NCBI GenBank assembly: GCA_035456405.1
Contig: DATIDG010000094.1
Span: forward strand, 8,625 to 72,624
DNA: 64,000 nt
Direction of reading: 5' to 3'
Source of the DNA: Burkholderiales bacterium
GTDB taxonomy: Bacteria; Pseudomonadota; Gammaproteobacteria; Burkholderiales; SG8-39
Shown here one piece after another: positions 30,000-59,645 of this stretch. Each line of letters opens with the position of its first letter. The first letter of the stretch is position 1. Made by a program: the position numbers and the translations under genes. A model generated the notes under the pieces. That model was not told where the DNA came from. It saw only the letters and a program-made list of their open reading frames with translations, and searched no databases.

Positions 30000-30007
30000 C
30001 CCGAACC

Positions 30008-31204
30008 TCAGCCGATAGTGATCCAGTCCGAGGCCGGCTCGATCGACTTGCCGGTCACCAGGTAGGTCCGGCCCGCTGGAATCGCGTGCGTCCTCATCGA
30101 CACCGGCACGCCGAAGATGCCGCCAGTGTCCCATTTGTTGATCGACTCGAGCGCCGCCTTCATGTTCGGGCCGGTCAGCTCCTTCTTCGCGCCGAGCGTA
30201 CGACCGATGACCTGGTCGAAGATCATGCCGACCAGCCATCCCTGCGTGTAGAACAGCGTCTGCCAGGGGCTGCCGGGCTTCCTCGAGCCGACCTCGCGGA
30301 TGAGCTCCATCGTGGGCGTCTTCTGGCTGTCGAAGGAGTAGCGGTACGGCATCACGCCGAGGAACCCGGCGCCGGTCGCGCCCATCTGGTCGATCGTCGT
30401 CTTGTCCATGCTGTAGATCGTCCCCATCCCGCGCGAGGAGAGGCCCGCCTCGCGCATCTGCCGGATGAACTCCGGGATCGGGGCGAGCACGTAGCCGTGG
30501 AAGATCACGAAGTCGGGCTTCGCGCGCCGCAGCTTGATCATCTCGGCCGAGACGTCGACCGCGCCGGGCTTGGTGACGATCTCCAGCGCCACCGGAATGC
30601 CGAGCTTCGCGGCCTTCGCCTTCCCGGCGGGGATCGGGTCGCGCCCGAACTCGGTGTCGGAGTACACGAAGGCCACCGACGGCTTGGTCGCGCCCGCCGC
30701 GCTGCGGCTCACGTGCTCCAGCAGGATCTCGATCATGCCGGAGTAGGTCGGGCCGGGCATGAAGTAGTAAGGCGCCTTCACCGGGTCGGCAAGGTCCGAC
30801 GAGAACGATGGTCCGGTCGCGAGCAGCGACCCGAGCTGGCTCACCTCCGGCGCGATCGCCTTCGCCCAGCCGGTGGAATCGCCGTAGAACAGGGGCGGTC
30901 TGTGCTGCGCCACGATCTTCTTGAAGATCGCGACCGACTGGTCGACCTTGTAGCCCGAGTCCTCGGCGACGTAGCGGAGCTTGCGCCCCGCGATGCCGCC
31001 CTGCGCGTTCTTCCACTCGACCCAGTCGCTGAGACCCGCGTGCAGGCCCGCCCCGGCGAACGCGAACACGCCGGTGATCGGCGGGGCGGCGCCGATGACG
31101 ATCTCGCCCGATTGCGCAAACACGCGCAGCGGCGCGCCAAGCGCCGCCGCCGCGCTTGCGGCGATGCCCGAGCCGATGAACCTGCGGCGATCGAAGCTGC
31201 TCAT
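30008..31204 (-). CDS. Periplasmic substrate-binding protein (LivK-type, type I PBP fold) with Tat-like signal
   Basis: The ATG at 31204 gives MSSFDRRRFIGSGIAASAAAALGAPLRVFAQ, a twin-arginine motif. The product is 398 aa. The upstream part of track ORF 30008-32215 is artefact. Confidence 0.85.
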   Translation of the reverse strand: MSSFDRRRFIGSGIAASAAAALGAPLRVFAQSGEIVIGAAPPITGVFAFAGAGLHAGLSDWVEWKNAQGGIAGRKLRYVAEDSGYKVDQSVAIFKKIVAQHRPPLFYGDSTGWAKAIAPEVSQLGSLLATGPSFSSDLADPVKAPYYFMPGPTYSGMIEILLEHVSRSAAGATKPSVAFVYSDTEFGRDPIPAGKAKAAKLGIPVALEIVTKPGAVDVSAEMIKLRRAKPDFVIFHGYVLAPIPEFIRQMREAGLSSRGMGTIYSMDKTTIDQMGATGAGFLGVMPYRYSFDSQKTPTMELIREVGSRKPGSPWQTLFYTQGWLVGMIFDQVIGRTLGAKKELTGPNMKAALESINKWDTGGIFGVPVSMRTHAIPAGRTYLVTGKSIEPASDWITIG

Positions 31205-31242
31205 GTGTACCTCCTCCTGTCGTGGATCGCGATGCCGGAATG

Positions 31243-32286
31243 CTACGTCCTGAAAGGCCACAAGTGGAAGAACCGACGCACCCGCCGCCAGATTTCGGCG
31301 AGGCCGTGCGGCTCGAAGATCAGGAATCCGACGATCAGCAGGCCGAACACGACCTGACGGATCGACGCGAGAAAGACCCCGGCCTCCTGCACTCCGAGCG
31401 CCTCGGCCCAGGCGACGAGCGCGCGCAGCACTTCCGGGACCATCGTCATGAAGGTCGCGCCCAGGATCGTGCCGAGGATCGATCCGAGACCCCCGACGAT
31501 GATCGCGGCGAGGTAGAAGACCGAGAGCGGCAGGCCGAACAGCTCCGGGGTCGCGACCCGGAAGAAGTAGCCCCAGAGCCCGCCCGCGACGCCGGCGTAG
31601 AACGACCCGATCGCGAAGGCGAGCAGCTTGTGGTGGAAGAGGCTGATGCCGAGCACCTCGGCCGAGATGTCGCGGTCCCGGATCGCGATGAACGCGCGCC
31701 CGACACGGGTGCGGAAGAGGTTTCGGGCGCCAAGAAGCATCACGACCGCGAGCGGCACGATCAGGAAGTAGATGCGCTGGTCGCCCGCCAGCTCGAAGCC
31801 GAAGAGGGACGCGGCAGGAACGTTGGCGCCGCGCACGCCGCCCGTCACCGACTCCCACTCGCGGAAGACGAAGCCGAGCACGAACTGCGCGGCGAGCGTG
31901 GCCACCGCGAAATAGAGACCCTTGATGCGCAGGCTGGGGATGCCGACCACCAGCCCGATCGCGGCGCTTACGAGGCCCGCCAGCGGCAGCGCGAGGTAGA
32001 ACGGGATGCTCGCTTTCTCGGCCACCGCCACGGTGTAGCAGCCGACGCCCATGAAGGCCGCGTGCCCGAGCGAGATGAGGCCGGTGTAGCCGGTCATGAT
32101 GTTGAGGCCGGCCGCACTGATCAGGTGGATGCCGAGGAGGCAAGCGAGGTAGACGAAGTAGCTCCCGCCGACGAATGGGAACGCGGCGAGCGCCGCGAGC
32201 AGCACGCCGAGCCATGCCCTCTGGACGCGCGTGTCGAACAGCGCCTCGTCGTGGCGGTAGCTGGCGTGGAAATCCCCGATTCTCAC
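31243..32286 (-). CDS. ABC transporter permease, LivM-like
   Basis: 347-aa polytopic ORF with a GTG start, in HAAT-family operon context. Confidence 0.88.
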   Translation of the reverse strand: MRIGDFHASYRHDEALFDTRVQRAWLGVLLAALAAFPFVGGSYFVYLACLLGIHLISAAGLNIMTGYTGLISLGHAAFMGVGCYTVAVAEKASIPFYLALPLAGLVSAAIGLVVGIPSLRIKGLYFAVATLAAQFVLGFVFREWESVTGGVRGANVPAASLFGFELAGDQRIYFLIVPLAVVMLLGARNLFRTRVGRAFIAIRDRDISAEVLGISLFHHKLLAFAIGSFYAGVAGGLWGYFFRVATPELFGLPLSVFYLAAIIVGGLGSILGTILGATFMTMVPEVLRALVAWAEALGVQEAGVFLASIRQVVFGLLIVGFLIFEPHGLAEIWRRVRRFFHLWPFRT

Positions 32287-32375
32287 GAGAACCCCTTACG
32301 CCACAGAGAGCACGGGGGACACGGAGAATGGAGAAGTCGGATTGGTCATGTCCGTGTCCGCTGCAGCCGAGGCTC
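32287..32375. repeat. REP-like intercistronic element (core inverted repeat GGACACGGA / TCCGTGTCC)
   Basis: The 89-nt spacer between the livH-like stop and the livM-like start contains CCACAGAGAGCACGG. A 9-bp inverted repeat lies at 32317-32325 and 32351-32359. The core is shared with the element at 38652-38762. Confidence 0.7.
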
Positions 32376-33254
32376 TCAAAGCCTTTCGATGTCCCGAGTT
32401 CCGAACAGGCCGTACGGCCGCACCATCAGGATCACCAGGACGACGAGGTAGGGCACGACGTCGCGCGCCTGGCCGCCGATGAACGCGACAGTGATGCTCT
32501 CCAGCCAGCCGACGATGAGCCCGGCGATGATCGCGCCGGCGATGCTGTCGAGCCCGCCGAGGATGATCACCGCCAGCACGCCGAGCGCCACGGTGCCGAG
32601 CGTCGGCGAGAGGCTGGTCATCGAGGCCACGATGATGCCGGCGACCGCGCCGGTGACGCCGGCAAAGATCCAAGTCAGGCGTTGCGTCCTGCGGACGTCG
32701 ATCCCCATCGCGTACGCGGTCACCGGGTCGGACGCTGCCGCCCGCATCGACACGCCGCCCTTCGACCAGTGAAAGTACGCCGTGAAGCCCGCAATCAGCG
32801 CGACGGCCAGCGCGAAGCTCCACAGCACCTGGCCCGGCAGGAGGACTTCGCCGAGGATCAGCGGCTTGCGCGGGAGGATCTCCGGCAGCGCGAGGTTGGC
32901 GCCGCCCCAAATCGCCTCCGCGGCGCCGTGCAGCACCGCGCCGAGCCCGATCGTGGCCATGACGATGCTGATCACCGGCTGCCCGGCGAGCGGGCGCAGC
33001 ACGAAGCGCTCCACCACCGCGCCGAGACCCGCGATGCCGACAAGCGTGAGTGCGAGCGCCGCCCACCACGGCAGCTTCAGGAAGACGTGCGTGGTCCAGA
33101 AGAGGTACGCCCCGACCATCATGAACTCGCCCATCGCGAAGTTGATGACGCGCGTGCCCTTGTAGACGAGCACGAAGCCGAGGGCGATCAGCGCCAGGAC
33201 GCCGCCCGAAAGCAGCCCGACGAGGCTGAATTCGGCGAGGAGGAGCCAGTCCAT
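32376..33254 (-). CDS. ABC transporter permease, LivH-like
   Basis: The ATG at 33254 gives MDWLLLAEFSLVGLLSGGVLALIALGFVLVYKGTRVINFAMGE, a typical LivH N-terminus. Confidence 0.9.
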   Translation of the reverse strand: MDWLLLAEFSLVGLLSGGVLALIALGFVLVYKGTRVINFAMGEFMMVGAYLFWTTHVFLKLPWWAALALTLVGIAGLGAVVERFVLRPLAGQPVISIVMATIGLGAVLHGAAEAIWGGANLALPEILPRKPLILGEVLLPGQVLWSFALAVALIAGFTAYFHWSKGGVSMRAAASDPVTAYAMGIDVRRTQRLTWIFAGVTGAVAGIIVASMTSLSPTLGTVALGVLAVIILGGLDSIAGAIIAGLIVGWLESITVAFIGGQARDVVPYLVVLVILMVRPYGLFGTRDIERL

Positions 33255-33259
33255 CGTTG

Positions 33260-34045
<786 letters not shown>

Positions 34046-34154: not shown

Positions 34155-35345
34155 ATGGCGGACGTGGACGTCGTGCTCGCGGGCGGCATGCGCACGCCTT
34201 TCGGTGATTTCGGCAAGTCGCTGCGCGAGGTGCCGCTCGCCGCGCTCGGCGTTCATGCCGCGAAGGCGTGTCTCGGCAAGGCCGGTCTCACCGCATCGCA
34301 GGTCGACCATCTCGTGTTCGGCAACGTGGTGCCGGTCGACTACGACGGGCACTTCGTCAGCCGCAAGGTCGCCCTGGGCGCCGGGCTGCCGGTCGAGTCG
34401 AGCGCGTTCGCGGTCAACCGTGCGTGCGCGTCCGGCTCGCAGGCGATCGCAAGCGCGGCGCAGAACGTGCGCGAGGGCCTCTCCGACATCGCTCTCGCGG
34501 TCGGCGGCGAGAACTTCTCGCGCGTGCCGTACGTCTCGCAGGGGACGCGCTGGGGCGCGCAGCGCGGGCCCGCGGCGCTCGACGACGGACTGGACTACGC
34601 TTACCGCTGCCCGTTCTCGCGCGAGCTGATGGGCGAGACCGCCGAGAACCTGACGGAGCGATTCGGCTACAAGCGCGAGGACATGGACGATTGGGGGCTC
34701 ATGAGCCAGATGCGCGCCCGCGAAGCGATCGAGGGCGGCTTCCTCGCGCAGCAGATTGCCCCGATCGAGGTGCCGGACGGCAAGGGCACGCGCCTGTTCG
34801 AGCGCGACGAGTTCCCGCGCTTCAACGTGACGCGCGAGAAGCTCGCGAGCCTCAAGCCGGCGTTCCGCGCCGGCGGCTGCGTGACGGCGGGCAACTCAAG
34901 CGGCGTGACTGACGGCGCCGCGGCGGTGATCGTGGCCGCGCGCCGCGCTCTAGAGCAGGCGGACGTGCGGCCGGAAGCGCGCGTGGTCGCTTACGTGACC
35001 GTCGGCGTCCCACCCGAGATCATGGGCGCGGGGCCGGTCCCGGCGATCGACGAGCTGCTGCGGCGCACCGGCCTGCGCGTCGACGAGATCGACTACTTCG
35101 AGATCAACGAGGCGTTCGCCGTGGTCAACCTGCACGCGGAGGCCGAGCTGAAGATCCCGCGCGAGCGGACGAACCTCTACGGCGGCGGCATCTCGATCGG
35201 CCACCCGCCGGGAGCGACGGGAATCCGGATGACGATCACTGCGATGCGCCACCTCGCCGCCGCGCGCGGCCGCTACGCCATCATCAGCATGTGCTGCGGT
35301 GCCGGGCAGGGGATGGCGACGCTGATCGAGAATCTGCGATACTGA
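34155..35345 (+). CDS. Thiolase (acetyl-CoA C-acyltransferase family)
   Basis: 396-aa ORF. NRACASGSQAI contains the active-site Cys. The C-terminal NLYGGGISIGHPPGATG and SMCCGAGQG motifs are present. Confidence 0.88.
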   Translation: MADVDVVLAGGMRTPFGDFGKSLREVPLAALGVHAAKACLGKAGLTASQVDHLVFGNVVPVDYDGHFVSRKVALGAGLPVESSAFAVNRACASGSQAIASAAQNVREGLSDIALAVGGENFSRVPYVSQGTRWGAQRGPAALDDGLDYAYRCPFSRELMGETAENLTERFGYKREDMDDWGLMSQMRAREAIEGGFLAQQIAPIEVPDGKGTRLFERDEFPRFNVTREKLASLKPAFRAGGCVTAGNSSGVTDGAAAVIVAARRALEQADVRPEARVVAYVTVGVPPEIMGAGPVPAIDELLRRTGLRVDEIDYFEINEAFAVVNLHAEAELKIPRERTNLYGGGISIGHPPGATGIRMTITAMRHLAAARGRYAIISMCCGAGQGMATLIENLRY

Positions 35346-35364
35346 CGCGTCAACGGAGCGTTCG

Positions 35365-35715
35365 ATGTCTGCACCGACCCCCGCCAAGCCCAGAGGCTCC
35401 CGCGTCGCCTGCTCGGTGCGCACGAGCGACGGCGCCAACGGCGTCTATTCCGTCTTTCCCGGCGCGGAGCCCAAGTCGATCGGCACCGTCGAAGCGGTCA
35501 AGTGGGACAAACAGCCGACCGGTCCGGTCACGCAAGGCGTCTTCACGATCATCGGCGAGATGGGGATGACTGGCCAGGTGATCCTGGTCGACCAATTCAA
35601 GTGGGAAGCGCTGCAGAAGACCAAGCTCGAGAACCACTTCTACGCGGCGCTCCTCTGGGGCGGAACGCCGCTGAAAGTCGTCGACGACGCGGTGGTGATG
35701 ACGAAGCGGGGCTGA
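35365..35715 (+). CDS. Hypothetical protein, no family recognised
   Basis: 116-aa ORF. It starts 19 nt after the thiolase stop, with GGAG 8 nt upstream of the ATG. Its composition is non-repetitive and non-Arg-biased (…VEAVKWDKQPTGPVTQGVFTIIGEMGMTGQVILVDQFKWEALQK…). Confidence 0.6.
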   Translation: MSAPTPAKPRGSRVACSVRTSDGANGVYSVFPGAEPKSIGTVEAVKWDKQPTGPVTQGVFTIIGEMGMTGQVILVDQFKWEALQKTKLENHFYAALLWGGTPLKVVDDAVVMTKRG

Positions 35716-35716
35716 G

Positions 35717-36865
35717 CTAGCGCCCCTCGAACAGCTTTCGGGCGATGATCTCCTTCATGATCTCGTTCGCCCCACCATATATGCGCTGAACGCGGGCGTC
35801 GGCCCAGGCGCGCGCGATCGGGTATTCCCGCATGTAGCCGTAGCCGCCGTGCAGCTGCAGGCAGGCGTCGATGACGCGGTTCTGCATGTCGGTCAGCCAG
35901 TACTTCGCCATCGACGCGGTCGCGGTGTCGAGCTTGCCCTCGAGGTGGAGCGCGATGCAGTGGTCGAGGAACGCGCGGCCGATCGTCACCTCGGTGTGCG
36001 CCTCGGTGAGGGCGAAGCGCACGTGCTGCTTCTCGGCGAGCGGCGCGCCGAAGGCCTTGCGCTCCCGCACGTAGTCCACTGTCCACCGGATCGCCGACTC
36101 GGCGGCGGCGACCGCGCCGATCGCGACGAGCAGGCGCTCCTGGGGCAGCTGTGACATGAGGTAGCCGAAGCCCTTGCCCTCTGCGCCGAGCAGGTTTGAT
36201 GCGGGTACGCGCACCTCGTCGAAGAGCAGCTCCGAGGTGTCCTGGGCGTGCATCCCGACCTTCTCGAGGTTGCGACCGCGCGCGAACCCGGGACGGTCGG
36301 CCTCGACCAGCACGAGGCTCACGCCTTTCGCGCCTGCTTCCGGATCGGTCTTCGCCGCGACAAGGAACAGGTCGGCGATCTGGCCGTTCGAGATGAAGAT
36401 CTTCTGGCCGCTGATCACGAGTTCGTCGCCATCCCGCCGCGCCCGCGTGCGGATCGCGGCGACGTCGCTGCCGGTGCCCGGCTCGGTCATGCAGATGCCG
36501 GAGATCGTCTCGCCAGTGGCCATTCGCGGCAACCACTTGCGCTTCTGATCCTCGCTCCCGTAGTGGATCAGGTACGGCGCGACGATGTCCGAGTGCAGGT
36601 AGAAAAGCGGCCCGGTCGCCCCCGCCCAGCACAGCTCCTCGGTGACGATCGTCGAGAGCAGGAAGTCGCCGCCCCCGCCGCCGTACTCGGCCGGTAGTGC
36701 GGGGCAGAGGAAGCCCAGCTCGCCCGCCTTGCGCCACAGCTCGCGCGGAACCTGCCCCCGCTCCTCCCAGTCGCCGTGATGCGGCGCGACTTCGCGTTCG
36801 ACGAATCGCCGGACGGTCTCGCGGAAGGCGTAATGCTCGTCGGTGTAGGGGAGGGTGAAGCTCAT
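35717..36865 (-). CDS. Acyl-CoA dehydrogenase
   Basis: 382-aa ORF, MSFTLPYTDEHYAFRETVRRFVEREV..., with MTEPGTGSD and QLHGGYGY motifs. Confidence 0.9.
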   Translation of the reverse strand: MSFTLPYTDEHYAFRETVRRFVEREVAPHHGDWEERGQVPRELWRKAGELGFLCPALPAEYGGGGGDFLLSTIVTEELCWAGATGPLFYLHSDIVAPYLIHYGSEDQKRKWLPRMATGETISGICMTEPGTGSDVAAIRTRARRDGDELVISGQKIFISNGQIADLFLVAAKTDPEAGAKGVSLVLVEADRPGFARGRNLEKVGMHAQDTSELLFDEVRVPASNLLGAEGKGFGYLMSQLPQERLLVAIGAVAAAESAIRWTVDYVRERKAFGAPLAEKQHVRFALTEAHTEVTIGRAFLDHCIALHLEGKLDTATASMAKYWLTDMQNRVIDACLQLHGGYGYMREYPIARAWADARVQRIYGGANEIMKEIIARKLFEGR

Positions 36866-36869
36866 CGCG

Positions 36870-37301
36870 TCAGGCGTGCTTGGCGTCGTGGGGCCGGGAA
36901 GTGACGTAGACCGTGCCGGTGAACGAGGAGACCGGCGTCCCGTCCGCCCGCGTCACGTCCACACGATACACGCCCAGCCGGCGCGTGCGCGTGATCTCGA
37001 TCGCGTTTGCGGTCAGCACGTCGCCGGCCTGCACCGCGACCTGGTAGGTGATGTGCGCGTCGATGCCGGCGGCGATAGTGCCGTGCGAGTTGGAGGCGAG
37101 CCCGAACGCGGTGTCGGCGAGCGCGAAGATCACGCCACCGTGGCAGCTCCCGTTGAAGTTGAGATGGTCCCTGCGCACCTTGAGCGAGACCGCCGCGCGG
37201 CCGAAGCCGCCGTCGATGCATTCGATTCCGAGACTGCGAGTGAGCGGATCGTGCGCAGCCATGTGCGCGATCCGCTTGCGGGCCTGTTCGTCGCGATCCA
37301 T
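36870..37301 (-). CDS. PaaI-family hotdog thioesterase
   Basis: 143-aa ORF. NFNGSCHGGVIFALADTAFG is a PaaI/4HBT class II motif. Confidence 0.85.
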   Translation of the reverse strand: MDRDEQARKRIAHMAAHDPLTRSLGIECIDGGFGRAAVSLKVRRDHLNFNGSCHGGVIFALADTAFGLASNSHGTIAAGIDAHITYQVAVQAGDVLTANAIEITRTRRLGVYRVDVTRADGTPVSSFTGTVYVTSRPHDAKHA

Positions 37302-37331: not shown

Positions 37332-38651
37332 TCAATCCGGAAAGCCGAGCAGCCGGACGAAGCCCGCCACGGGCTCGCCCGCCGCGTCGGCGCCGTTCTC
37401 GCGGGACTTGGGATCGGGATAGCCGAGCTTCAGCGCGGCGACCACGATCTCGTTTGCGGCGAGCCCGAGCTCGTGCTCGATCACGTCGTGGTAACGCGCC
37501 ACCGAGGTGCGGGAGAACGCCACGAGGCCGCGCGCCCGCGCCGCCGCGAGCAGCGCCTCGATGTGCATGCCGCAGTCGAGCCAGTCGCCGCGCCCGAGCG
37601 GCCACGCCGCGGTGTAGATCAGTGCGAGCGGCGCGCCCGATGCCGGTTCACCGAGGCCTGCGGCCTGCAGCGCGGCGACGAGCCGCGCGAGCGGTTCCCC
37701 CGCGAGAACATAAACGCGCCACGGCGGGTCGCCGCTCGTGGCGAGCGCCGGGCGCGCCGCCGCGAGGACCGCTTCTACGGTTTCGCGCGAGACCGGCGCC
37801 GGGAGCAGCGCCTGAGGTGTCCGATGCGAGACGAGCGCGCGATCGACCGCAGCCCGGTCGTCCGCGCTGACCGGCGGCTGCGCCCGCAGCCGGCGACCGC
37901 GCCCGGCGAACGCGGCGTGCGTGTCGATCGCATCCACGAGCTCCGGCGTCCCTTCCTTGGTGGTGGCGGTCGTGCGCAGCACGCGCACCTCCCACTCGCC
38001 CCGCCGGCGCAGCCTGAGCATCTCGCGCAGGGCGCGTTCGGTGTCGACGGCGAGCGGCGAGTCACCCTTGTTCACCACCAGGATGTCGGCGATCTCGAGG
38101 ATGCCCGCCTTGATCGCCTGCACGTCGTCGCCCAGGCCGGGCGCGCACACGACGATACGCGTGTCCGCGATCCCGGCCACCTCCACTTCCGACTGCCCGG
38201 TGCCGACCGTCTCGACCAGGATGGTGTCGAACCCCGCCGCGTCGAGGACGTCCACGATCCGGCTCGTCTGGCGCGACAGGCCGCCGAGGTGGCCGCGCGA
38301 TGCGACCGAGCGGATGAACACCCGGTCGTCGCTCCCGTGCTCGCCCATGCGCACGCGGTCGCCCAGCACGGCGCCGCCGGTGACGGGGCTCGACGGATCG
38401 ACTGCGACAACGCCGATCCGCCGGCCGCGCGCGAGCAGCTCGCCGAGCAGGGCGTTGATCAGCGTGGACTTGCCCGAGCCGGGCGCGCCGGTGATGCCGA
38501 TCGCGTGCGCGCTTCCGACGTGGGGCGCCATCGCCGCGTTCAGCGCGGCGCTCTCGCGGCTCTCCGTCTCGACCGCCGTGATCGCGCGCGCGATCGAGCG
38601 CCGGTCGCCGGCGCGAACCGGGGCGAGGAGCGGGTGATCAGCGGGATTCAT
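37332..38651 (-). CDS. MeaB/ArgK-type G-protein chaperone fused to a C-terminal nitroreductase-like domain
   Basis: The N-terminal 270 aa or so carry GITGAPGSGKSTL, DPSSPVTGGAVLGDRVRM, VETVGTGQSE and NKGD. The C-terminal 165 aa or so carry VSHRTPQALLPAPVSRETVEAVLAAARPALATSGDPPWRVYVL...LKLGYPD, a nitroreductase-fold pattern. Confidence 0.8.
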   Translation of the reverse strand: MNPADHPLLAPVRAGDRRSIARAITAVETESRESAALNAAMAPHVGSAHAIGITGAPGSGKSTLINALLGELLARGRRIGVVAVDPSSPVTGGAVLGDRVRMGEHGSDDRVFIRSVASRGHLGGLSRQTSRIVDVLDAAGFDTILVETVGTGQSEVEVAGIADTRIVVCAPGLGDDVQAIKAGILEIADILVVNKGDSPLAVDTERALREMLRLRRRGEWEVRVLRTTATTKEGTPELVDAIDTHAAFAGRGRRLRAQPPVSADDRAAVDRALVSHRTPQALLPAPVSRETVEAVLAAARPALATSGDPPWRVYVLAGEPLARLVAALQAAGLGEPASGAPLALIYTAAWPLGRGDWLDCGMHIEALLAAARARGLVAFSRTSVARYHDVIEHELGLAANEIVVAALKLGYPDPKSRENGADAAGEPVAGFVRLLGFPD

Positions 38652-38762: not shown

Positions 38763-40436
38763 TCACACGATAGCCTGAACGTGCCCGAAGCCGAGCTCCT
38801 TGCGCAGCCGCCCGCAGATCTCGCCGTGCGTGCAGCCCGCCTCGGCGGCTTCGACCACCTTGGCGAACACGTTCTCGCCGGGATCTTGCGCGGCCGCGCC
38901 GAGCGCGTCGAGCGCCTTGCGCACCGCGGCCTCGGGGCGCGCTGCCTTGTACGCCCTGAACGCCTCGATGTGCGCCTTCATGTGCGACGGATCGGGCTTC
39001 TCGAGCGGCTGCCGCGCGCTGCGGTCCTCGTCCACCCGGTACGCGTTCACGCCCACGATCGTCTGCTCTCCCGACTCGACCCTGGCCTGGAACTGCCGCG
39101 CCGACTCGCCGATCATCTTCTGCACGAGGCCGCCCTCGACCGCCTTGTACATCCCGCCCGCGTCCTCGACCAGCTTCATGATGCGGAGGCACTCGGCCTC
39201 CATCTGGTCGGTGAGCCGCTCGACGTAGTAGCTCCCGCCGAGCGGGTCGATCACGTCGGTCAGGTGCGCCTCCTCGCGCAGGATGTTCTGCGTGGCCACC
39301 GCGATCCGCGCGCCCGCCTCGGTCGGGCAGGACAGCGCCTCGTCGTAGCTGTCGGTGTGCAGCGACTGGAGGCCGCCGAAGATGCCGGCCATCGCCTGCA
39401 CCGCGACGCGCGCGACGTTGTTGAGCGGCTGGGCGCGCGTGAGATCCACGCCCGAGGTCTGCGCGTGGAACTTGAAGCGCCACGAGCGCGGGTCCTTCGC
39501 GCCCCACCGCTCGCGCGCGACGCGCGCCCAGATGCGCCGGCCGGCGCGGAACTTCGCGATCTCTTCGAAGAACGAGATCGAGATGTCGAAGAAGAACGTG
39601 AAGCGCGGCAGGAACTGGTCCGGGTCCATTCCGCGCGCGGCGCAGTCGTCGGCGTTCTGGATCGCGGTCGAGAGCGTGAAGGCCATCGCCTCCGCCGGGT
39701 TCGCGCCGCCCTGCTGCATGTGCTGGCCGACGACCGACATCGGATTCCACTTCGGCACGAAGCGGTTGCAGTACTCGATGTGGTCCGCGAGGATGCGCCG
39801 CGCGCCCGGCAGCGCGATGCGGAAGAACATGTGGTTCGCGACGTAGTGCGAGAGGTAGTCGCTCTGGTTCGAGGTCCCGCTGATCAGGCGCCAGTCGACG
39901 CCGCGCCGCTTTGCCGTCGCCAGCAGGAAGGCGAGGAGCGTGAACGGGCTCGGATCGTTCATCGCGCAGGAGGTCCGCGCGAGATCGACGCCCTCGAGCG
40001 CGCGTTCCATGTGGTCGGCGGAATTGACGACCGTTCCGCAGGTGCCGAGAAGCTCCTCGTGCACCTCGTCCATGTCGTAGCCGCGGAACACGGAGTTGCA
40101 CGGGATGAGCGAGATCGCGTTCGTGCCCCGGTCGACGAGGTCGCGCAGGCGCGCGTTGTAGTCGGCCGGCGTGCCGAGCCCGACGAGCTGGCGCTGCGAC
40201 CAGGTACGGCCGCGATGCATGGTCGCGTAGATGCCGCGCGTGTAGGGCGGCTGGCCGGGAAAGCCCAGGGCCTCGTCGTACCGCGCCGGATCGACGTCGC
40301 GCGGCGTGTAGAGCGGCTTGATCTCGATGCCGGAGCGGTTGGCGATCGCCTCGTCCGCGCCGATCTGCGCGGCGTACTCGTCCTGCCAGCGGGCCTCGGG
40401 GGTGTCGAGCAGCTTGGTCTCGAGAGGCTTGTTCAT
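38763..40436 (-). CDS. Methylmalonyl-CoA-mutase-family large (substrate-binding) subunit, divergent subfamily
   Basis: 557-aa [46 protein letters not shown] and [13 protein letters not shown] are clearly acyl-CoA mutase motifs. Several pocket motifs are non-canonical (see findings). Confidence 0.85.
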
Positions 40437-40450
40437 TGCTGACTCCGGGA

Positions 40451-40873
40451 TCAGACTGTGGCGCGTGCGGCGCGCACGCGCCGCGCCGCTTCACGGATGT
40501 ACTGTGCGATCTCCTCGAGCCCGGCGCCGGGGTGAAAGATCCTGGCGACGCCACTGCGCAGGAGGAGATCCTCGTCCTCGTCGGGCACGATCCCGCCGAC
40601 GATCACTGCGACGTCGCCCAGTCCGGCGGCGCGCAGCGCGTCCATCACCTTCGGCACGATCAGGTGGTCGGTCGCGAGCGAGGAGATGCCGATCACGTCG
40701 ACGTCCTCCTCGGTCGCCAGCTTGACGACCGTCGCGATCTCCTGCCATGGCGGCGTGTAGATCACCTCCATGCCCGCGTCGCGCAGGTACGCCGCGACCA
40801 CGCGGCTGCCGCGGTCGTGGCCGTCGAAGCCGATCTTCGTGATCAACACTTTTGGTCGGATGTCCATCGTCAT
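40451..40873 (-). CDS. Acyl-CoA mutase small subunit, cobalamin-binding domain
   Basis: The ATG at 40873 overlaps the tetR stop (ATGA). The 140-aa product has DGHDRG (DxHxxG), GISSL (SxL) and VGGIVP (GG). Confidence 0.9.
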
Positions 40874-41472
40874 TCCTGGTCCAGTTCGCTGCGCAGCAGC
40901 GCGACGAAGCGCCGCGCGATCGTCCGCGGACTGTCGCGGCCCGGGTGGTACCAGGTCTGCGACCAGTTGAGCGCGCCGAGCAGCATCAGCCGCACGCTGC
41001 GGCGGTCGACGCCGCGCGCGAGCGGCAGCGCCTGCACGAGGTCGACGAAGAGTCTTTCGTACTCGTCCCGGCGCCTCACCAGCTCGCCGGCGACGGTCGG
41101 CGCATCGGCCGGGCGCACGCGGATGACGACCTGCGCGTAGTCGCCCGCGCTGTTCTCCGAAAGCAGCAGCCCCTCGAGATGCGCCACGCACGCGGCCTCG
41201 AGACGTTCCCACGGCTCGCGTTTGCCGGCGATCGCCGCGCTCACCGCCTCCGAGATGCGCCGCACGCCTTCCGCGTAAACCGCGGCAAGCAGCGCCTCCT
41301 TGGTGGCGAAGTGGTAGTAGAGGGAGCCCGGCAACATGTCGATCGCGCGCACGATGTCGCGCACCGACGTGCCGTGGAACCCCTGCACGGCGAACAGGCG
41401 CGCCGCCTCGTCCAGGATCAGAGGCAGGCGGTTGTCGGCACGCGGGACGCGGGCGGGGCGGGCGGGAGGCAT
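40870..41472 (-). CDS. TetR/AcrR family transcriptional regulator
   Basis: 200-aa ORF. The N-terminal HTH is FHGTSVRDIVRAIDMLPGSLYYHFATKEALL. Confidence 0.9.
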   Translation of the reverse strand: MPPARPARVPRADNRLPLILDEAARLFAVQGFHGTSVRDIVRAIDMLPGSLYYHFATKEALLAAVYAEGVRRISEAVSAAIAGKREPWERLEAACVAHLEGLLLSENSAGDYAQVVIRVRPADAPTVAGELVRRRDEYERLFVDLVQALPLARGVDRRSVRLMLLGALNWSQTWYHPGRDSPRTIARRFVALLRSELDQE

Positions 41473-41473: not shown

Positions 41474-41505
41474 GTTACAAAGCAAACGATCGTTTGCTTT
41501 GTAAC
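41474..41505. promoter_or_regulatory. Perfect 32-bp palindrome, candidate TetR operator
   Basis: GTTACAAAGCAAACGATCGTTTGCTTTGTAAC is its own reverse complement. It is AT-rich in a GC-rich context and starts 2 nt upstream of the tetR ATG. Confidence 0.7.
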
Positions 41506-41540: not shown

Positions 41541-42161
41541 TCAAGTCGCAGACCAGTTGAGATGGAACTCGAGGGGCGGCGGCTCCCAGGCCGCCATGCG
41601 GTCGACGAGCCGCTCGGGGTCGGGTTCCGCCACCACCAGCCCGCGGTGCCCCGCACGGAGCAGGCCGTCCGCCACCGCGCGGTCGAATTGCGCGAGGAGG
41701 CCGTCGAAGTAGCCCGCGACGTTCACCACGCCGCACGGCTTGCGGTGGATGCCGAGCTGCGCCCAGGTGATCATCTCGCAGATCTCCTCGAAGGTGCCGA
41801 AGCCGCCGGGCAGCGCCACGAATCCGTCCGAGAGCTCGGACATCCGCGCCTTGCGCTCGTGCATGGAGCGCACGACGATCAGCTCGGTGAGATCGACGCC
41901 GTCGTAAGCGAGCTCCTTCCTCTGCAGCGCGGAAGGAATGATGCCGATGACTTTCCCGCCGGCGCTGCGCGCGCCCTGCGAGACGGCCCCCATCAGTCCG
42001 ACGCGGCCGCCGCCGAATACGAGGGTGATGCCGCGCCGCGCGAGCGCCGCGCCCATGGCGCGGGCGGTCGCGGCGAAGACCGGATCGTTGCCGGCGTTCG
42101 AGCCGGCGAAAATGCAGAGTGCCTTGATCGGCAATTTCAGAACCCCCCCGTCGCGAGCCAT
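41541..42161 (-). CDS. LOG family protein (TIGR00730; cytokinin riboside 5'-monophosphate phosphoribohydrolase-like)
   Basis: GGGRVGLMG and PGGFGTFEE motifs are present. The ATG at 42161 overlaps the upstream gene by 25 nt. An alternative TTG at 42134 (MPIKALCIFAGS) has GGGGGG upstream and removes the overlap. Confidence 0.85.
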   Translation of the reverse strand: MARDGGVLKLPIKALCIFAGSNAGNDPVFAATARAMGAALARRGITLVFGGGRVGLMGAVSQGARSAGGKVIGIIPSALQRKELAYDGVDLTELIVVRSMHERKARMSELSDGFVALPGGFGTFEEICEMITWAQLGIHRKPCGVVNVAGYFDGLLAQFDRAVADGLLRAGHRGLVVAEPDPERLVDRMAAWEPPPLEFHLNWSAT

Positions 42162-42739
42162 CGCTCCACCTGGTCCAGCCGGTCGGCGCCCCAGAATGCC
42201 TCGCCGTCCACCACGATGTACGGCGACCCGAACGCGCCGGCCTTGATCGCCTTCTCGACCTCGCCCTTGGTGAGGTCCTTGACGGCCTGGTCGTTGATGC
42301 CCGCGCGCACCTCGTCCGCGTTCAGGCCCGACTTCGCCGCGACCGCGATCGTGCTCTCGGCATCGGAGATGTCGACGTCCTCGACCATGTAGGCGCGGTA
42401 CAGGGCGGCCGCGAGCTGCTTCGCGCGCTTCGGGTCCTTCGCGTTCATCCAGTAGAACGCCCGGGTCGGCGCCACCGACGAGATCGGAAACTTGCTCGGA
42501 TACTTGAACGGCACGCCGTGGAAGCGCGCGCTGCGCGCGAAGTCGCGGATGAAATACTCGCCCTTCATCGGAAACCCGACCGGCGCCGCCCCGCCGGTGA
42601 CCTTGAACGCCGCGCCCAGCAGGAACGGCCGCCAGATCGCCTCGCGCCCGTGCCTGGCCGCGAGCGCGTCGATCTTGTGGCTCGCGATGTACCCGTACGG
42701 CGAGGCGAAGTCGAAGTAGAAGTCGATCGGTGCCGGCAT
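42137..42739 (-). CDS. 2-hydroxychromene-2-carboxylate isomerase / DsbA-like thioredoxin-fold protein
   Basis: 200-aa ORF. IDFYFDFASPYGY and GSPYIVVDGEAFWGADRL are typical of the HCCA isomerase family. Confidence 0.85.
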   Translation of the reverse strand: MPAPIDFYFDFASPYGYIASHKIDALAARHGREAIWRPFLLGAAFKVTGGAAPVGFPMKGEYFIRDFARSARFHGVPFKYPSKFPISSVAPTRAFYWMNAKDPKRAKQLAAALYRAYMVEDVDISDAESTIAVAAKSGLNADEVRAGINDQAVKDLTKGEVEKAIKAGAFGSPYIVVDGEAFWGADRLDQVERWLATGGF

Positions 42740-42746
42740 CGTTGTC

Positions 42747-43883
42747 TCACTCGTTCGCTATTGCGCGGCTGATCACCAGCCGCTGAATGTCGCTGGCCCC
42801 TTCGTAGATCTGGCACACCCGCACGTCCCGGTAGATCCGTTCCACGGGGAAGTCGTTCACGTAACCGTAGCCGCCGTGGATCTGGATTGCGTCGGAGCAG
42901 ACCTGCTCGGCCATCTCGCTCGCGAAGAGCTTCGCCATCGACGCCTCCTTGAGGCACGGGCGCTTCGCGTCGCGCAGGGCCGCCGCGTGCCACACCATCT
43001 GTCGCGCGACCTCGATCTGCGTCGCCATGTCCGCGAGGCGGAAGCTCACCGCCTGGTGCTCGATGATCGGCTTGCCGAAGGTCTCGCGCTCCTTCGCGTA
43101 GGCGAGGGCGGCCTCGTATGCGGCGCGCGCCATTCCGACCGCCTGCGCCGCGATGCCGATCCTTCCTCCCTCGAGGTTCGAGAGCGCGATGCGGTAGCCC
43201 TGGCCCTCCGCCCCGAGCAGGCTGTCCGCCGGGACGCGGCAATTCTCGAACGCGATCTGGGCCGTGTCGGAGGCGCGCTGGCCAAGCTTGTGCTCGACGC
43301 GCGCCACGACGTAGCCGGGCGTGTCGGCCGGCACGACAAAGGCGCTGATCCCGCGCTTCCCTGCGCCCTTGTCGGACACGGCGAAGACGACGGCCCAATC
43401 GGCGTTCTTCCCGGTCGTGATGAACTGCTTCACGCCGTTCAGCACCCAGTGCGCGCCGTCGCGCTCCGCGCGGGTCCGGATCGCCGCGGCGTCCGAGCCG
43501 ACGTGCGGCTCGGTCAGGCAGAAGCAGCCGAGCTTCTGGCCCGAGGCGAGCGGATTGAGCCAGCGCGCCTTCTGCGCGTCGGTGCCGAAGGCATTGATCG
43601 GCCCGCAGACCACCGAGTTCTGCACGCTGAGCATGGTCGAGCACGCGCCGTCGCCGGCGGCCACCTCCTCGAGCACCAGCGCGAGCGACACGTGGTCGAG
43701 CCCGGCCCCGCCCCAGCGCTCGGGCACGCACACGCCCATGAGGCCCATCCGCCCCATCTCCGCAAGCGCCTCGCGCGGGAACGTCGCGTTCCGGTCCCAC
43801 TCCGCGGCGAACGGCGCGAGCCTCTCGCGCGCGAACGCCCGCACCGAGTCGCGGACCATTTCCTGTTCGTGTGTCAGCAGCAT
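42747..43883 (-). CDS. Short/branched-chain acyl-CoA dehydrogenase
   Basis: The ATG at 43883 gives [41 protein letters not shown] and IYEGASDIQ motifs are present. Confidence 0.9.
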
Positions 43884-43891
43884 CCCCCGTC

Positions 43892-44374
43892 CTACGGCGC
43901 CACGGGTGCGGCGCCCTTCTGCATCGCGCGGAGGTGTCCGCCGAGGAGCGCCGCGGGGATCACTAGCACGTCGCCCGCGAGCCGCACCCACAACGCGGTT
44001 CCCTGCCCGGAGAAGAGCACCATCGCCTCGCCGAACACGAGCGACGCGAGCCCGACCGCGAACGCGGTCGCGTACTCGCTCCGGTTCGCGAACCGCGCCG
44101 CGACGTAGCCGCCCAGCGCAGTGCAGGTCAGTCCACCCGCCAGGCCGACGAGCTGGAAGGTCGGGGACTCCGCGAACGCCCGGCCGAGATCCTCGGGAGC
44201 GACGCCGCCGGACACGAGGAGGATGCTCGCGACCGTCGCCGCGACCACCGAGAACACCATGGTGCCGCCGACGTCCACCACGAAGCCGAGCAGGATGGCG
44301 AGCGGCGTCGAACGCGGCCGCGCGCCTTGCGGGTCGCGGACCGGCGAGCCCGGCGGGCGATAGGGATCGGTCAC
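43892..44374 (-). CDS. Hypothetical membrane protein (about 4 TM helices)
   Basis: 160-aa ORF with hydrophobic segments ([30 protein letters not shown], etc.). No family recognised. Confidence 0.55.
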
Positions 44375-44432: not shown

Positions 44433-45617
<1,185 letters not shown>

Positions 45618-45651
45618 GGTGAGTTCCTCGGTCGAAGGCGATGACGAAAAT

Positions 45652-46281
45652 CTATACGGGTTTGCGGTCGAGTGCGAGCCAGGCGGCGAGCGCGCCGAAG
45701 ACGCCGCCGAGGGCAATGCGTTGAGCCTTCACCCATCCTGGACGCGCCGTGATGCGCCGCGCCAGCGCGGCTGCGAGCAGGACAACGCCCACATCGACCG
45801 CTGCAGTGACGGCGATGTTAACGAGCCCCAGGACGACACTCTGCGCGAGCACCGGGCCGGCGGGATCGATGAACTGGGGCAAGAGCGCGAGATAGAAAAG
45901 CGCCACCTTCGGGTTCAGCACGCTCGACGTCACGCCCTGACGGAACAGCACGCGGTCCGGGACCGAGGGCAGCGCTACGAGTGCGAAGCCATCGCCCCCC
46001 GCGCCGCGAATCGTCGTCGACGCGAGCCACAGCAGGTACGCCGCGCCAGCGAGCCGGATCGCGTCGTAGGCGAGCGGCACCGTCATCAGCACCGCGGACA
46101 ACCCGAGCGCGGCGGCGAGCATGTGGAACGACAGGCCGGCCGACGTGCCGCTCCAGGAAATGAGTCCCGCGCGGCGACCCTGGAAGAGCGTTCGCGAGAG
46201 GAGGTAGAGCATGTTCGGCCCCGGCGTGAGCGCGAGCACCACCGAGGCCAGCGCCACCATCGCGAGAGTCTGCGACTGCAT
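45652..46281 (-). CDS. LysE/RhtB family amino-acid exporter
   Basis: 209-aa ORF. LTPGPNMLY and NPKVALFYLALLPQF are LysE family motifs. Confidence 0.88.
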   Translation of the reverse strand: MQSQTLAMVALASVVLALTPGPNMLYLLSRTLFQGRRAGLISWSGTSAGLSFHMLAAALGLSAVLMTVPLAYDAIRLAGAAYLLWLASTTIRGAGGDGFALVALPSVPDRVLFRQGVTSSVLNPKVALFYLALLPQFIDPAGPVLAQSVVLGLVNIAVTAAVDVGVVLLAAALARRITARPGWVKAQRIALGGVFGALAAWLALDRKPV

Positions 46282-46285
46282 CGGT

Positions 46286-47506
46286 CTAGATCGTCTCGGC
46301 GAAGAGCTCTCTGCCGATCAGCCAGCGCCGGATCTCGCTCGTGCCGGCGCCTATCTCGTACAGCTTCGCGTCGCGCCACAGCCGCCCGGTCGCGTAGTCG
46401 TTGATGTAGCCGTTGCCGCCGAGCGCCTGGATCGCCTCGCCGGCCATCCACGTCGCCTTCTCGGCGGAGTAGAGGATCGCGCCCGCGGCGTCCTTGCGCA
46501 GCGCCCGCACGTCGTCCGGCGTCTTCGCGCGATCGCAAGCCTGCCCGACCGCGTACACGTAGGCACGGCACGCCATCATCGTCGAGTACATGTCGGCGAG
46601 CTTGCCCTGCATGAGCTGGAACTCGCCGATCGACTGGCCGAACTGCTTGCGCTCGTGCACGTATGGAATCACCACGTCCATGCACGCCGCCATGAGACCG
46701 ATCGGCCCACCGGAGAGCACCGCGCGCTCGAAGTCGAGCCCGCTCATGAGGACGTTCACACCCCGCCCGAATTCGCCGAGGATCTGGGACTCGGGCACCT
46801 CGCAGTCCTGGAACACCAGCTCGCAAGTGTTGGAGCCGCGCATGCCGAGCTTGTCGAGCTTCTGTGCGGTGCCGAAGCCCTTCATGCCCTTCTCGATGAG
46901 GAACGCGGTGATTCCGCGCGGGCCGGCGTTCGCATCGGTCTTGGCGTAGACCACCAGCGTGTCCGCATCCGGCCCGTTGGTGATCCATATCTTGTTGCCG
47001 TTGAGCACGAACTTTCCGTTCGAATAGTCGGCCCGCAGGCGCATGTTCACCACGTCGGAGCCGGCGCCCGGCTCGCTCATCGCGAGCGCGCCGACGTGCT
47101 CGCCAGAGACGAGCTTCGGCAGGTACTTCTCCTTCTGCGCAGTGCTGCCGTTGCGGCGGATCTGGTTGACGCAAAGGTTCGAGTGCGCGCCGTACGACAG
47201 CCCCACCGACGCCGAAGCGCGGCTGATCTCCTCCATCGCGACGATGTGCGCGACGTAGCCGAGGTAGCTGCCGCCGTACGCCTCTTCCACGGTGATGCCG
47301 AGCAGCCCGAGGTCGCCGAGCTTCTTCCACAGATCGGGCGGGAACTCGTTCGTGCGGTCGATCTCGGCCGCGCGCGGAGCGATCTCCTCGGCCGCGAACT
47401 CGCGCACGGTGCGGCGGAGCATGTCGACCGTTTCGCCGAGCTCGAAGCGCAACTGCGGGAACTCGATCATCGGGACGGCGGAACCGAGGTGCTGGGGGCG
47501 ATCCAT
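46286..47506 (-). CDS. ivd: Isovaleryl-CoA dehydrogenase
   Basis: [18 protein letters not shown] and the overall sequence are typical of IVD/LiuA. The ATG at 47506 has GGAGA 9 nt upstream. An ATG at 47470 is the alternative start. Confidence 0.9.
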
Positions 47507-47695
47507 CGGTGTTCTCCAGGAATGCGCGGCCGCCGAAATGGCGCCCCGCACATTACGGTAGTTCCGATAAAGGCCTTTCGGCCGAAAATGTCGCTAGCTC
47601 GGAACGGCACAAGGCGTTGTCTGATGACGTCCACGCTCGTCCAATTGCGCTGCCTCGCGACACCCCGAGGCCATTGTGCAGAACTTTCCCAATTT

Positions 47696-54892: not shown

Positions 54893-54947
54893 GGTCTTCT
54901 CTCCCTGATGGCGCGCCCGCCCTGTCGCGGGCGCGGTACGAACCGTT

Positions 54948-59452: not shown

Positions 59453-59489
59453 GAGCGGGGGCGCATGCTGCGCCGCGGAAAGGCCGCGC

Positions 59490-59495
59490 ATTATA
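59490..59495 (-). promoter_or_regulatory. Candidate -10 box (TATAAT) of argS
   Basis: A perfect TATAAT on the minus strand lies 37 nt upstream of the argS ATG. Confidence 0.35.
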
Positions 59496-59645
59496 CCGGA
59501 CCCCCTTGGCGCAAGACCGTGGCGCCGCATAGGCTTTTCGCCCTGCGGACCGCTGCGGGCAGGGCCCGGGCATGATCAGGATCAAAGCACGCTATTGAGC
59601 GAACGATCAATATGCGCCCATCTTCTCGTGCGGAAGGAGACGGCC

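Follow-up and report, generated by a model that had tools for sequence, protein, structure and literature searches.

A split cobalamin-dependent mutase from a Burkholderiales bacterium is probably a pivalyl-CoA mutase orthologous to that of Xanthobacter autotrophicus

Two adjoining genes on the minus strand of a 64-kb stretch of DNA from a Burkholderiales bacterium (the window, by which we mean the whole stretch analysed) appear to encode the large (38763-40436) and small (40451-40873) subunits of an adenosylcobalamin (AdoCbl)-dependent pivalyl-CoA mutase (PCM), a reading that we hold at a probability of about 0.85. Judged by sequence, the pair is a clear orthologue of the X. autotrophicus PCM, and because of that orthology the pocket motifs that had seemed unusual would be those usual in a known enzyme rather than the mark of a new specificity. 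Such an enzyme is already known: a reviewed UniProt entry represents the family, the signature residues and the operon. PCM catalyses a reversible radical 1,2-shift of the carbon that bears the thioester and so interconverts pivalyl-CoA (2,2-dimethylpropionyl-CoA) and isovaleryl-CoA. The X. autotrophicus enzyme was reportedly characterised by Kitanishi, Cracan & Banerjee in J Biol Chem in 2015. The most likely function of the window genes is the isomerisation of pivalyl-CoA to isovaleryl-CoA in a TetR-controlled module for pivalate catabolism, where we infer from sequence that this orthologue is active, in which direction it runs physiologically and what the accessory genes do.

The mutase genes and their closest relatives

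The two genes and their profile matches are as follows.

40451-40873, minus strand: small (B12-binding) subunit, PcmB-like, 140 aa (PF02310, E 1.8e-24; TIGR00640, E 1.3e-39)
38763-40436, minus strand: large (substrate-binding) subunit, PcmA-like, 557 aa (PF01642, E 2.3e-168)

A preliminary description of this DNA had read the two genes as a split AdoCbl-dependent acyl-CoA mutase with a large and a small subunit. Both lie on the minus strand exactly where it had placed them, and the assignment is supported. The small subunit, a separate polypeptide that had been called canonical, indeed carries DGHDRG (the DxHxxG motif), ISSL and VGGIV in its translation and matches both profiles. The large subunit had been assigned to the methylmalonyl-CoA mutase (MCM) family, in agreement with the PF01642 match, which runs from residue 34 to 549 and covers positions 3-512 of the 512 in the profile, leaving the barrel on its own polypeptide. 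All the motif strings that had been quoted for it, VGQHMQQGG included, are found in the translation.

The same description had gone on to say that this set of motifs fits no known specificity, that of PCM included, and here the comparison leads elsewhere. By BLASTP the large subunit shares 67% identity with Xaut_5043 of X. autotrophicus Py2 over 538 aa, and the small subunit shares 71% with Xaut_5044 over 133 aa. Exact-sequence look-up identifies Xaut_5043 as UniProt A7IQE5, whose Swiss-Prot RecName is "Pivalyl-CoA mutase large subunit"; Xaut_5044 is named "Pivalyl-CoA mutase small subunit". Xaut_5043 has every one of the quoted motifs, the last of them in the form VGQHMQQAG. Thus the claim of novelty fails, because the window proteins share these identities and all the flagged motifs with an enzyme that already bears the PCM name; high identity to a mutase of established specificity, which the description had itself counted against its proposal, is what the search returned. 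We take the activity of the Xaut_5043/Xaut_5044 enzyme to be the characterised one, going by its Swiss-Prot name.

A metagenomic homologue (P0093), 79% identical, is named "pivalyl-CoA mutase large subunit" at JGI. In a tblastn search against plasmids, Xaut_5043 on pXAUT01 was among the best matches at 66.9% identity; only 6 records fell between 59 and 67%, and every other one was at or below 40.6%.

Signature of the active site

Residues were mapped by phmmer alignments to solved structures and by a MAFFT alignment of 80 sequences. The column of MutB Tyr89 and HcmA Ile90 is that of the residue following RQ (RQ-Y-AGF), and it holds Leu84 in the window protein. The preliminary description had put the His of ATMH at the Tyr89/Phe80 position, but this residue, His74, aligns with MutB Tyr79. 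A similar shift of register had put Ala at the Arg207/Gln198 position, where the column of MutB Arg207 and HcmA Gln208 holds Asn201 and not Ala200. The Gln assigned to the Tyr243 position is borne out by the alignment as Gln238, next to which His244 is kept as His239. The broader view that the enzyme differs from MCM, isobutyryl-CoA mutase (ICM) and 2-hydroxyisobutyryl-CoA mutase (HCM) at the specificity positions is also supported.

The signature residues of the large subunit are L84, I111, P112, C113, N114, H197, N201, Q238, H239, Q242 and D362, which read LIPCNHNQHQD at MutB positions 89, 116, 117, 118, 119, 203, 207, 243, 244, 247 and 366. At the same eleven positions MCM reads YAFDLERYHEN, HCM reads IDFDMEQYHEN and ICM-like sequences read FAFDLEQYHEN. 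In MCM, Tyr89 and Arg207, together with Tyr243, bind the carboxylate of the substrate; the window protein aligns Leu84, Asn201 and Gln238 to them. In HcmA, Ile90 and Asp117 bind the substrate hydroxyl, and here Leu84 and Ile111 are found. The Phe/Gln pair at MutB 89 and 207, which we take to correspond to Phe80 and Gln198 of ICM, is likewise replaced by Leu/Asn.

It is very improbable that the specificity of the mutase is entirely new and without relation to that of any characterised mutase, as had been proposed. At almost all specificity positions the pocket is unlike those of MCM, ICM and HCM, but the same pocket is present in the Swiss-Prot-named PCM, at the high identities given above and within an identical operon architecture. 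The PCM reading agrees with the pocket residues themselves: at MutB 89, 117, 118, 203, 207, 243, 244, 247 and 366 the window protein and Xaut_5043 both have L, P, C, H, N, Q, H, Q and D (9/9). The aligned pocket motifs differ at four positions, MutB 116, 119, 121 and 209, with Ile, Asn, Val and Met in the window protein versus Leu, Cys, Gly and Gln in Xaut_5043. The differences at 116 and 119 are conservative, and at 119 and 209 it is Xaut_5043 that is the atypical member of its clade, the window residues being the majority type.

Phylogeny

A neighbour-joining (NJ) tree was built from 53 taxa and 541 alignment columns with 100 bootstraps. In 100/100 bootstraps 20 genome homologues (L002-L021) formed one clade with the window protein and Xaut_5043, and Xaut_5043 branched from inside it. 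Identity is 59-86% within this PCM clade and at most 44% to everything else; the largest distance inside it is 0.67, and distances to outsiders are at least 1.0. The full LIPCNHNQHQD string is found in 19 of the 22 clade sequences, and one further member (L020) has it save for a gap at MutB 89. The Phe/Gln pair is seen in 47 of the distant homologues, all of which fall outside the clade; the outgroups are called ICM-like by this pair alone. Membership in the ethylmalonyl-CoA mutase (ECM) family is very unlikely because of the 67% identity to PCM.

The best match in the PDB is HcmA (4r3u_A, E 2.2e-110), and this could be read as pointing to an HCM/RCM-type 2-hydroxyisobutyryl-CoA mutase. Against this, the window protein lies at an NJ distance of 1.19 from HcmA versus 0.44 from Xaut_5043, none of the bootstrap replicates places HcmA in the PCM clade, and Ile90, Asp117 and Gln208 of HcmA are replaced by Leu84, Ile111 and Asn201. 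An HCM is therefore the least credible of the readings considered, and the assignment suggested by the top PDB match was rejected on the signature residues and the tree.

Operon, regulator and operator

The remaining genes of the operon, together with a palindrome at its head, are these.

41475-41504, no strand: perfect 30-nt palindrome TTACAAAGCAAACGATCGTTTGCTTTGTAA, ending 2 nt before the tetR ATG
40870-41472, minus strand: tetR, TetR-family regulator, first gene of the operon (PF00440, 3.6e-17; PF17932, 8.5e-14; 46% identity to Xaut_5045)
37332-38651, minus strand: MeaB-type G-protein chaperone (residues 1-255) fused to a nitroreductase-like domain (residues 256-439) (PF03308, 5e-85; partial PF00881)
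36870-37301, minus strand: PaaI-type hotdog thioesterase (PF03061, 2e-14; 36% identity to Xaut_5041)
35717-36865, minus strand: acyl-CoA dehydrogenase (ACAD), LCAD-like, last operon gene in the window lineage (three ACAD Pfam domains)

Coordinates and profile matches bear out the gene order that had been described, namely tetR, small subunit, large subunit, meaB fusion, PaaI thioesterase and ACAD. The stop codon of tetR overlaps the start of the small-subunit gene (ATGA). The order tetR-small-large-meaB-paaI is also that of the Xaut locus, and it is complete, with five genes in the same order, in 10 genome loci of the clade. A PaaI-type thioesterase after meaB is conserved across PCM loci; the window protein scores 105 bits against TIGR02286, under the cut-off of 119.

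A core of the form (C/T)AAAC-N4-GTTT(G/A) is present upstream of tetR at no fewer than 15 PCM loci, including that of X. autotrophicus (GCTAAACGATCGTTTAGT). The palindrome at 41475-41504 is probably the TetR operator, where we infer that the regulator binds. The operon had been described as a self-contained, ligand-induced module for an unknown acyl-CoA; ligand induction fits the conserved operator-like palindrome, while orthology to PCM makes pivalyl-CoA the most likely acyl-CoA.

Neighbouring catabolic genes

Two further groups of genes in the window could belong to the same pathway.

27322-34045, minus strand: uptake and activation module (Pfam matches; 35-55% identity to Xaut_5036 through Xaut_5039), made up of the five entries below
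33260-34045, minus strand: Liv-type ABC transporter ATPase (Pfam)
about 31243-33240, minus strand: Liv-type ABC transporter permeases (Pfam)
30008-31204, minus strand: Liv-type ABC transporter binding protein (Pfam)
29190-29996, minus strand: second Liv-type ABC transporter ATPase (Pfam)
27322-29193, minus strand: AMP-forming acyl-CoA ligase (Pfam)
46286-47551, minus strand: isovaleryl-CoA dehydrogenase (IVD) (phmmer: bacterial IVD structures 4o5m/4kto, E 2.5e-190; human IVD, 1e-161)

In Xanthobacter the transporter and ligase genes Xaut_5036-Xaut_5039 flank the PCM operon, and pivalate is the presumed substrate of the window module. The IVD gene lies 6 kb from the operon, to which it is tied by proximity only, and its product would consume the product of PCM. 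A complete liu (leucine/isovalerate) cluster downstream was considered and rejected: only the IVD is real, 57803-59575 is ArgS and 53363-54988 had no carboxylase match. No methylcrotonyl-CoA carboxylase was found in the 64-kb window, nor was a counterpart of the PaaK-like ligase Xaut_5040.

The ACAD of the operon has 2pg0 (1e-130) and human LCAD 8w0t (9e-125) as its top PDB matches, and not IVD. The relatives L082/L083, at 91% identity, have it too, whereas the remaining PCM loci lack it, and a divergent thiolase adjoins it. Taken with the four pocket-motif differences from Xaut_5043, which is itself the atypical sequence at two of them, these genes raise the possibility that pivalyl-CoA is only one in-vitro substrate of the window mutase, its physiological substrate in this Burkholderiales lineage being another or larger quaternary- or branched-carbon acyl-CoA (2,2-dimethylbutyryl-CoA, for example, or one from another neo-acid). 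Enzymes of the LCAD-like type accept long substrates that are bulky or branched, and the co-transcription of this one with the mutase, along with the thiolase beside it, would fit such a role. However, both genes are lineage-specific additions missing from most PCM loci, the IVD is close by, the eleven signature positions show no further difference and the clade is tight relative to its distance from outsiders. We consider another physiological substrate unlikely.

Proposed mechanism and pathway

The small subunit would use the His of DGHDRG to bind the cofactor in the base-off/His-on mode, and the large subunit would be a TIM barrel whose pocket is predicted to be without the polar carboxylate-binding residues of MCM. 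The replacements of Tyr89 by Leu84, Arg207 by Asn201, Tyr243 by Gln238 and the AFD strand by IPC could suit a tert-butyl or isobutyl group, both of them bulky and without charge. The MeaB G-protein chaperone would serve in cofactor loading for PCM, and a TetR repressor at the palindromic operator would head the operon. The operon, along with the ABC transporter and AMP-forming ligase next to it, may form a catabolic module for pivalate, a quaternary-carbon acid, with a route from pivalate to pivalyl-CoA, on to isovaleryl-CoA and then into the leucine/isovalerate pathway through the nearby IVD.

Comparison with known systems

The closest system is the PCM of X. autotrophicus, with which the window shares split subunits, all flagged motifs, the clade, the gene order from tetR to paaI, a nearby AMP-ligase and Liv-type ABC transporter, and an AAAC-N4-GTTT palindrome upstream of tetR. 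Apart from the four pocket residues, the two differ in what lies downstream of paaI, which is the LCAD-like ACAD in the window and the PaaK-like ligase Xaut_5040 in Xanthobacter, where the PCM operon is plasmid-borne (pXAUT01). HcmAB of Aquincola tertiaricarbonis (PDB 4R3U), the best match among solved structures, is also a split AdoCbl acyl-CoA mutase of similar size, and His244, Gln330 and the CoA-binding framework are kept; identity is only ~40%, the AFD/DFD strand is IPC in the window protein and Tyr243 is Gln. MCM (P. shermanii MutB, 1REQ; human MMUT, 2XIJ) belongs to the same Pfam family and aligns over the full length, with DxHxxG His-on binding and a MeaB-type chaperone partner in common, but it is ~38-40% identical and the B12 domain of the window enzyme is a separate polypeptide. 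ICM and IcmF share with the predicted PCM the use of uncharged branched acyl-CoAs and an association with a G-protein chaperone, while IcmF is a three-domain fusion whose match to the window protein reaches only E 1e-47. A passage of PMC10481361, which cites Cracan & Banerjee 2012, mentions weak pivalyl-CoA mutase activity as a side reaction of ICM/IcmF.

The route proposed here has a parallel in another organism. In the betaproteobacterium Thauera humireducens PIV-1, as Jacoby et al. reportedly described in Environ Microbiol in 2022, a pivalate-CoA ligase leads to an AdoCbl pivalyl-CoA mutase and on to the isovalerate/leucine pathway.

As a discovery the window genes matter little, given that the PCM family is already represented and close homologues already carry the PCM name at JGI. 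In NCBI-style annotation, however, the clade does not yet go by that name. The LIPCNHNQHQD string and the tetR-small-large-meaB-paaI synteny could serve to annotate the clade correctly, and correct annotation would provide a marker for the degradation of quaternary-carbon (neo-)acids in soil and wastewater Burkholderiales.

The MeaB fusion

The variety of MeaB fusions and the conserved operator offer small testable leads on how PCM is serviced and regulated. The window fusion matches MeaB and nitroreductases in the PDB, and its G-domain is 61% identical to Xaut_5042. Compared with Xanthobacter, a degenerate nitroreductase-like domain replaces the usual C-terminal extension; relative to the intact fused domain of L004 it is shortened, with ~50 residues missing and the RRSxRxF motif lost. 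We found no description of MeaB-thioesterase or MeaB-nitroreductase fusions in the literature searched. The loss of the MeaB arm together with the PaaI and nitroreductase fusions might mean that the chaperone physically recruits either a thioesterase, which would clear dead-end acyl-CoA from the inactivated mutase, or a flavin/cobalamin-reducing module. The accessory proteins might in this way form an undescribed unit for cofactor or substrate proofreading around an ordinary mutase, or the window-type majority with Asn, Val and Met at MutB 119, 121 and 209 might prefer a quaternary-carbon acyl-CoA other than pivalyl-CoA; we regard this pair of ideas as rather doubtful. Across PCM operons MeaB is without its usual C-terminal arm, and in the PCM loci of many relatives, including most of those in Burkholderiales, it is fused to the PaaI-type thioesterase, as at 9762-10961 of L007.

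Operon organization

The stretch has a G+C content of about 70%, and the ORF list and profile searches place the mutase genes in a compact minus-strand operon.

40870-41472, minus strand: tetR regulator (PF00440 and PF17932)
40451-40873, minus strand: B12-binding small subunit, 140 aa (PF02310, E 1.8e-24; TIGR00640, 1.3e-39)
38763-40436, minus strand: acyl-CoA mutase large subunit, 557 aa (full-length PF01642, E 2.3e-168)
37332-38651, minus strand: MeaB fusion, 439 aa
36870-37301, minus strand: PaaI-type hotdog thioesterase
35717-36865, minus strand: acyl-CoA dehydrogenase (ACAD)

The start of the small subunit is overlapped by the tetR stop codon (ATGA), and the small and large subunit genes lie 14 nt apart. 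The small subunit carries DGHDRG, ISSL and VGGIV and the large subunit VGQHMQQGG, and all the motif strings that the preliminary description had quoted are present where it placed them, far beyond chance.

Relationship to the Xanthobacter pivalyl-CoA mutase

The mutase operon is real, but it encodes the orthologue of an enzyme whose specificity is established, and is already known. In a tblastn search of a plasmid collection, the Xanthobacter autotrophicus Py2 plasmid pXAUT01 stood at the top of the tool's ordering, aligning to 97% of the query at 66.9% identity; only six plasmid records lie at 59-67% identity and the rest at 40.6% or less. Exact-sequence look-up gave UniProt A7IQE5, "Pivalyl-CoA mutase large subunit", for Xaut_5043, and the name "Pivalyl-CoA mutase small subunit" for Xaut_5044. 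In pairwise BLASTP the large subunits are 67% identical (363/538) and the small subunits 71% (94/133), and a metagenomic homologue 79% identical to the window protein bears the JGI name "pivalyl-CoA mutase large subunit". All the motifs flagged as odd in the window protein are also present in Xaut_5043, including VGQHMQQAG. The Xanthobacter enzyme is the native α2β2 pivalyl-CoA mutase (PCM) reportedly expressed by Kitanishi, Cracan and Banerjee (J Biol Chem 2015), and it is reported to interconvert isovaleryl-CoA and pivalyl-CoA without isobutyryl-CoA mutase (ICM) activity; for this reference activity we rely on the database name.

When one genome per species was scanned, 25 loci (L002-L026) were found at 59-86% identity, followed by a sharp fall to 44% or less. 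Their hosts are mostly Burkholderiales MAGs (e.g. Ramlibacter, Rubrivivax), with some Alpha- and Gammaproteobacteria. A neighbor-joining tree was built from 53 taxa and 541 alignment columns, with the anchors HcmA (the 2-hydroxyisobutyryl-CoA mutase, HCM, large subunit), human methylmalonyl-CoA mutase (MCM) and P. shermanii MutB transcribed from phmmer alignments. All 100 bootstraps recover the window protein, Xaut_5043 and L002-L021 as a monophyletic group in which Xaut_5043 is nested; distances within this PCM clade reach at most 0.67, while the smallest to any outsider is 1.00. The clade also has a specific one-residue insertion (GTS-N-Q) and its own residue signature.

Signatures at MutB positions 89/116/117/118/119/203/207/243/244/247/366
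PCM clade (19 of 22 sequences, including the window protein): LIPCNHNQHQD
Xaut_5043: LLPCCHNQHQD
MCM: YAFDLERYHEN
HcmA: IDFDMEQYHEN
Most distant homologues (ICM-like): FAFDLEQYHEN

Given the identities in both subunits, the common clade and the signature in common with Xaut_5043, the claim that the pocket matches no specificity already described has to be abandoned. We put the probability that the window mutase has the predicted PCM activity at 0.85. It is unlikely that the physiological substrate has shifted within the PCM clade, and we allow for this because the window-type majority differs from Xaut_5043 at MutB positions 116, 119, 121 and 209 and because the operon carries an ACAD that is LCAD-like (matching 2pg0 and human LCAD).

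A sister lineage to the PCM clade was seen in a Desulfobacteraceae MAG (L027, 202-1809), at 41% identity and with the signature LVPCNHCQHED. It has Cys at the Arg207 position and retains Glu at position 247, and this variant might have a related but distinct specificity.

Register of the pocket residues

The register was taken from phmmer alignments to solved structures (HcmA 4r3u, E 2e-110; human MCM, 6e-100; MutB, about 5e-88) and an 80-sequence MAFFT alignment, and was counted along the 5REQ/1REQ chain. MutB Tyr89 is the residue following RQ (RQ-Y-AGF), in the same column as HcmA Ile90, and 5REQ, which we take to be the Y89F mutant, has Phe exactly there. The window residue in this column is Leu84. 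The His of ATMH (His74), which had been assigned to it, aligns with MutB Tyr79 instead. The Ala proposed for the Arg207 position was off by one residue, as Asn201, which follows it, occupies the Arg207/HcmA Gln208 column. The Gln at Tyr243 was correctly placed (Gln238), and His244 corresponds to His239. Ile111 is found in the HcmA Asp117/MutB Ala116 column, and the conserved F-D after it is P-C. Two of the three assignments in the preliminary description were thus misplaced, yet the pocket is truly unlike those of MCM, HCM and ICM-type sequences.

Gene neighborhood and proposed pathway

The Xanthobacter locus runs Xaut_5045 (TetR), Xaut_5044 (B12-binding), Xaut_5043 (large subunit), Xaut_5042 (MeaB, annotated "LAO/AO transport system ATPase") and Xaut_5041 (PaaD/PaaI). 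Beyond these genes come two CoA ligases and a Liv-type ABC transporter. The complete tetR-small-large-meaB-paaI order is found in ten clade genome loci as well as in Xanthobacter, and several clade loci also have the AMP-ligase and Liv-type transporter. Further genes of the window are listed below.

27322-34045: transporter and ligase module (ATPase, two permeases, Peripla_BP_6 binding protein, second ATPase, AMP-binding ligase)
34155-35345, plus strand: thiolase
35365-35715, plus strand: 116-aa protein without Pfam match
46286-47551: genuine isovaleryl-CoA dehydrogenase (IVD; E 2.5e-190 to 4o5m), in a group with a thiolase and a further ACAD

The transporter and ligase proteins share 35-55% identity with Xaut_5036 through Xaut_5039. 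Beyond the homology, signature and synteny observed here, and the reference activity taken from the database name, we infer a pathway in which the ABC system would import pivalate or a related neo-acid and the AMP-forming ligase would activate it. PCM would then convert pivalyl-CoA to isovaleryl-CoA by an AdoCbl radical 1,2-rearrangement, and IVD and the leucine pathway would finish the oxidation. MeaB would gate cofactor loading and unloading, and the PaaI-type thioesterase would probably free CoA from dead-end thioesters. A full liu cluster was considered and rejected, methylcrotonyl-CoA carboxylase being absent from the window.

The operon ACAD, co-transcribed after paaI, converges on the 116-aa protein and thiolase (34155-36865). 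The trio is confined to close relatives (L082/L083, 91% identity), is not shared by the clade as a whole and does not belong to the conserved PCM operon. Upstream of tetR (41541-43991 and 44433-47551), a conserved block of LOG-family, DSBA-like, ACAD, small membrane protein, thiolase, LysE exporter and IVD genes has the same order in L082.

Regulation

The sequence at 41475-41504, TTACAAAGCAAACGATCGTTTGCTTTGTAA, is a perfect 30-nt palindrome that stops 2 nt short of the tetR ATG. At least 15 clade loci, Xanthobacter (GCTAAACGATCGTTTAGT) among them, have the palindrome core, (C/T)AAAC-N4-GTTT(G/A), upstream of tetR. The palindrome resembles the PsrA/FadR-type TetR operator and is the likely operator of a PsrA-like TetR regulator, with binding and a ligand predicted. 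The conserved palindrome supports the earlier idea of a self-contained module under ligand control.

MeaB fusions

The window MeaB is reduced to its G-domain (residues 1-255), the usual C-terminal arm being absent. Residues 256-439 form a shortened nitroreductase-fold domain with a partial PF00881 match and PDB matches to 3gr3, NfnB and, weakly, BluB. Alignment with L004, whose fused domain is intact (PF00881, E 1e-35), shows that about 50 internal residues are gone from the window domain, as are the RRSxRxF and APSGxNxQPW motifs. The window domain has probably lost catalytic activity and may act as a dimerisation module only. The 439-aa fusion also occurs in L082/L083; otherwise very few database proteins have it. 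In these two loci a class II aldolase/adducin-family gene lies between the MeaB fusion and paaI (L082 13003-13863; L083 4460-5320); the window lacks it, and the gap there is only 30 bp.

In the literature searched, no description of MeaB-thioesterase or MeaB-nitroreductase fusions was found. Many Burkholderiales PCM operons have the MeaB G-domain and a PaaI/4HBT thioesterase on a single ORF with both Pfam domains.

L002, 4481-5713: MeaB-PaaI single ORF
L003, 9731-10906: MeaB-PaaI single ORF
L007, 9762-10961: MeaB-PaaI single ORF
L008, 9744-10928: MeaB-PaaI single ORF
L010, 2835-4037: MeaB-PaaI single ORF

MeaB and PaaI lie in the same frame in four further loci (L005, L006, L009 and L022).
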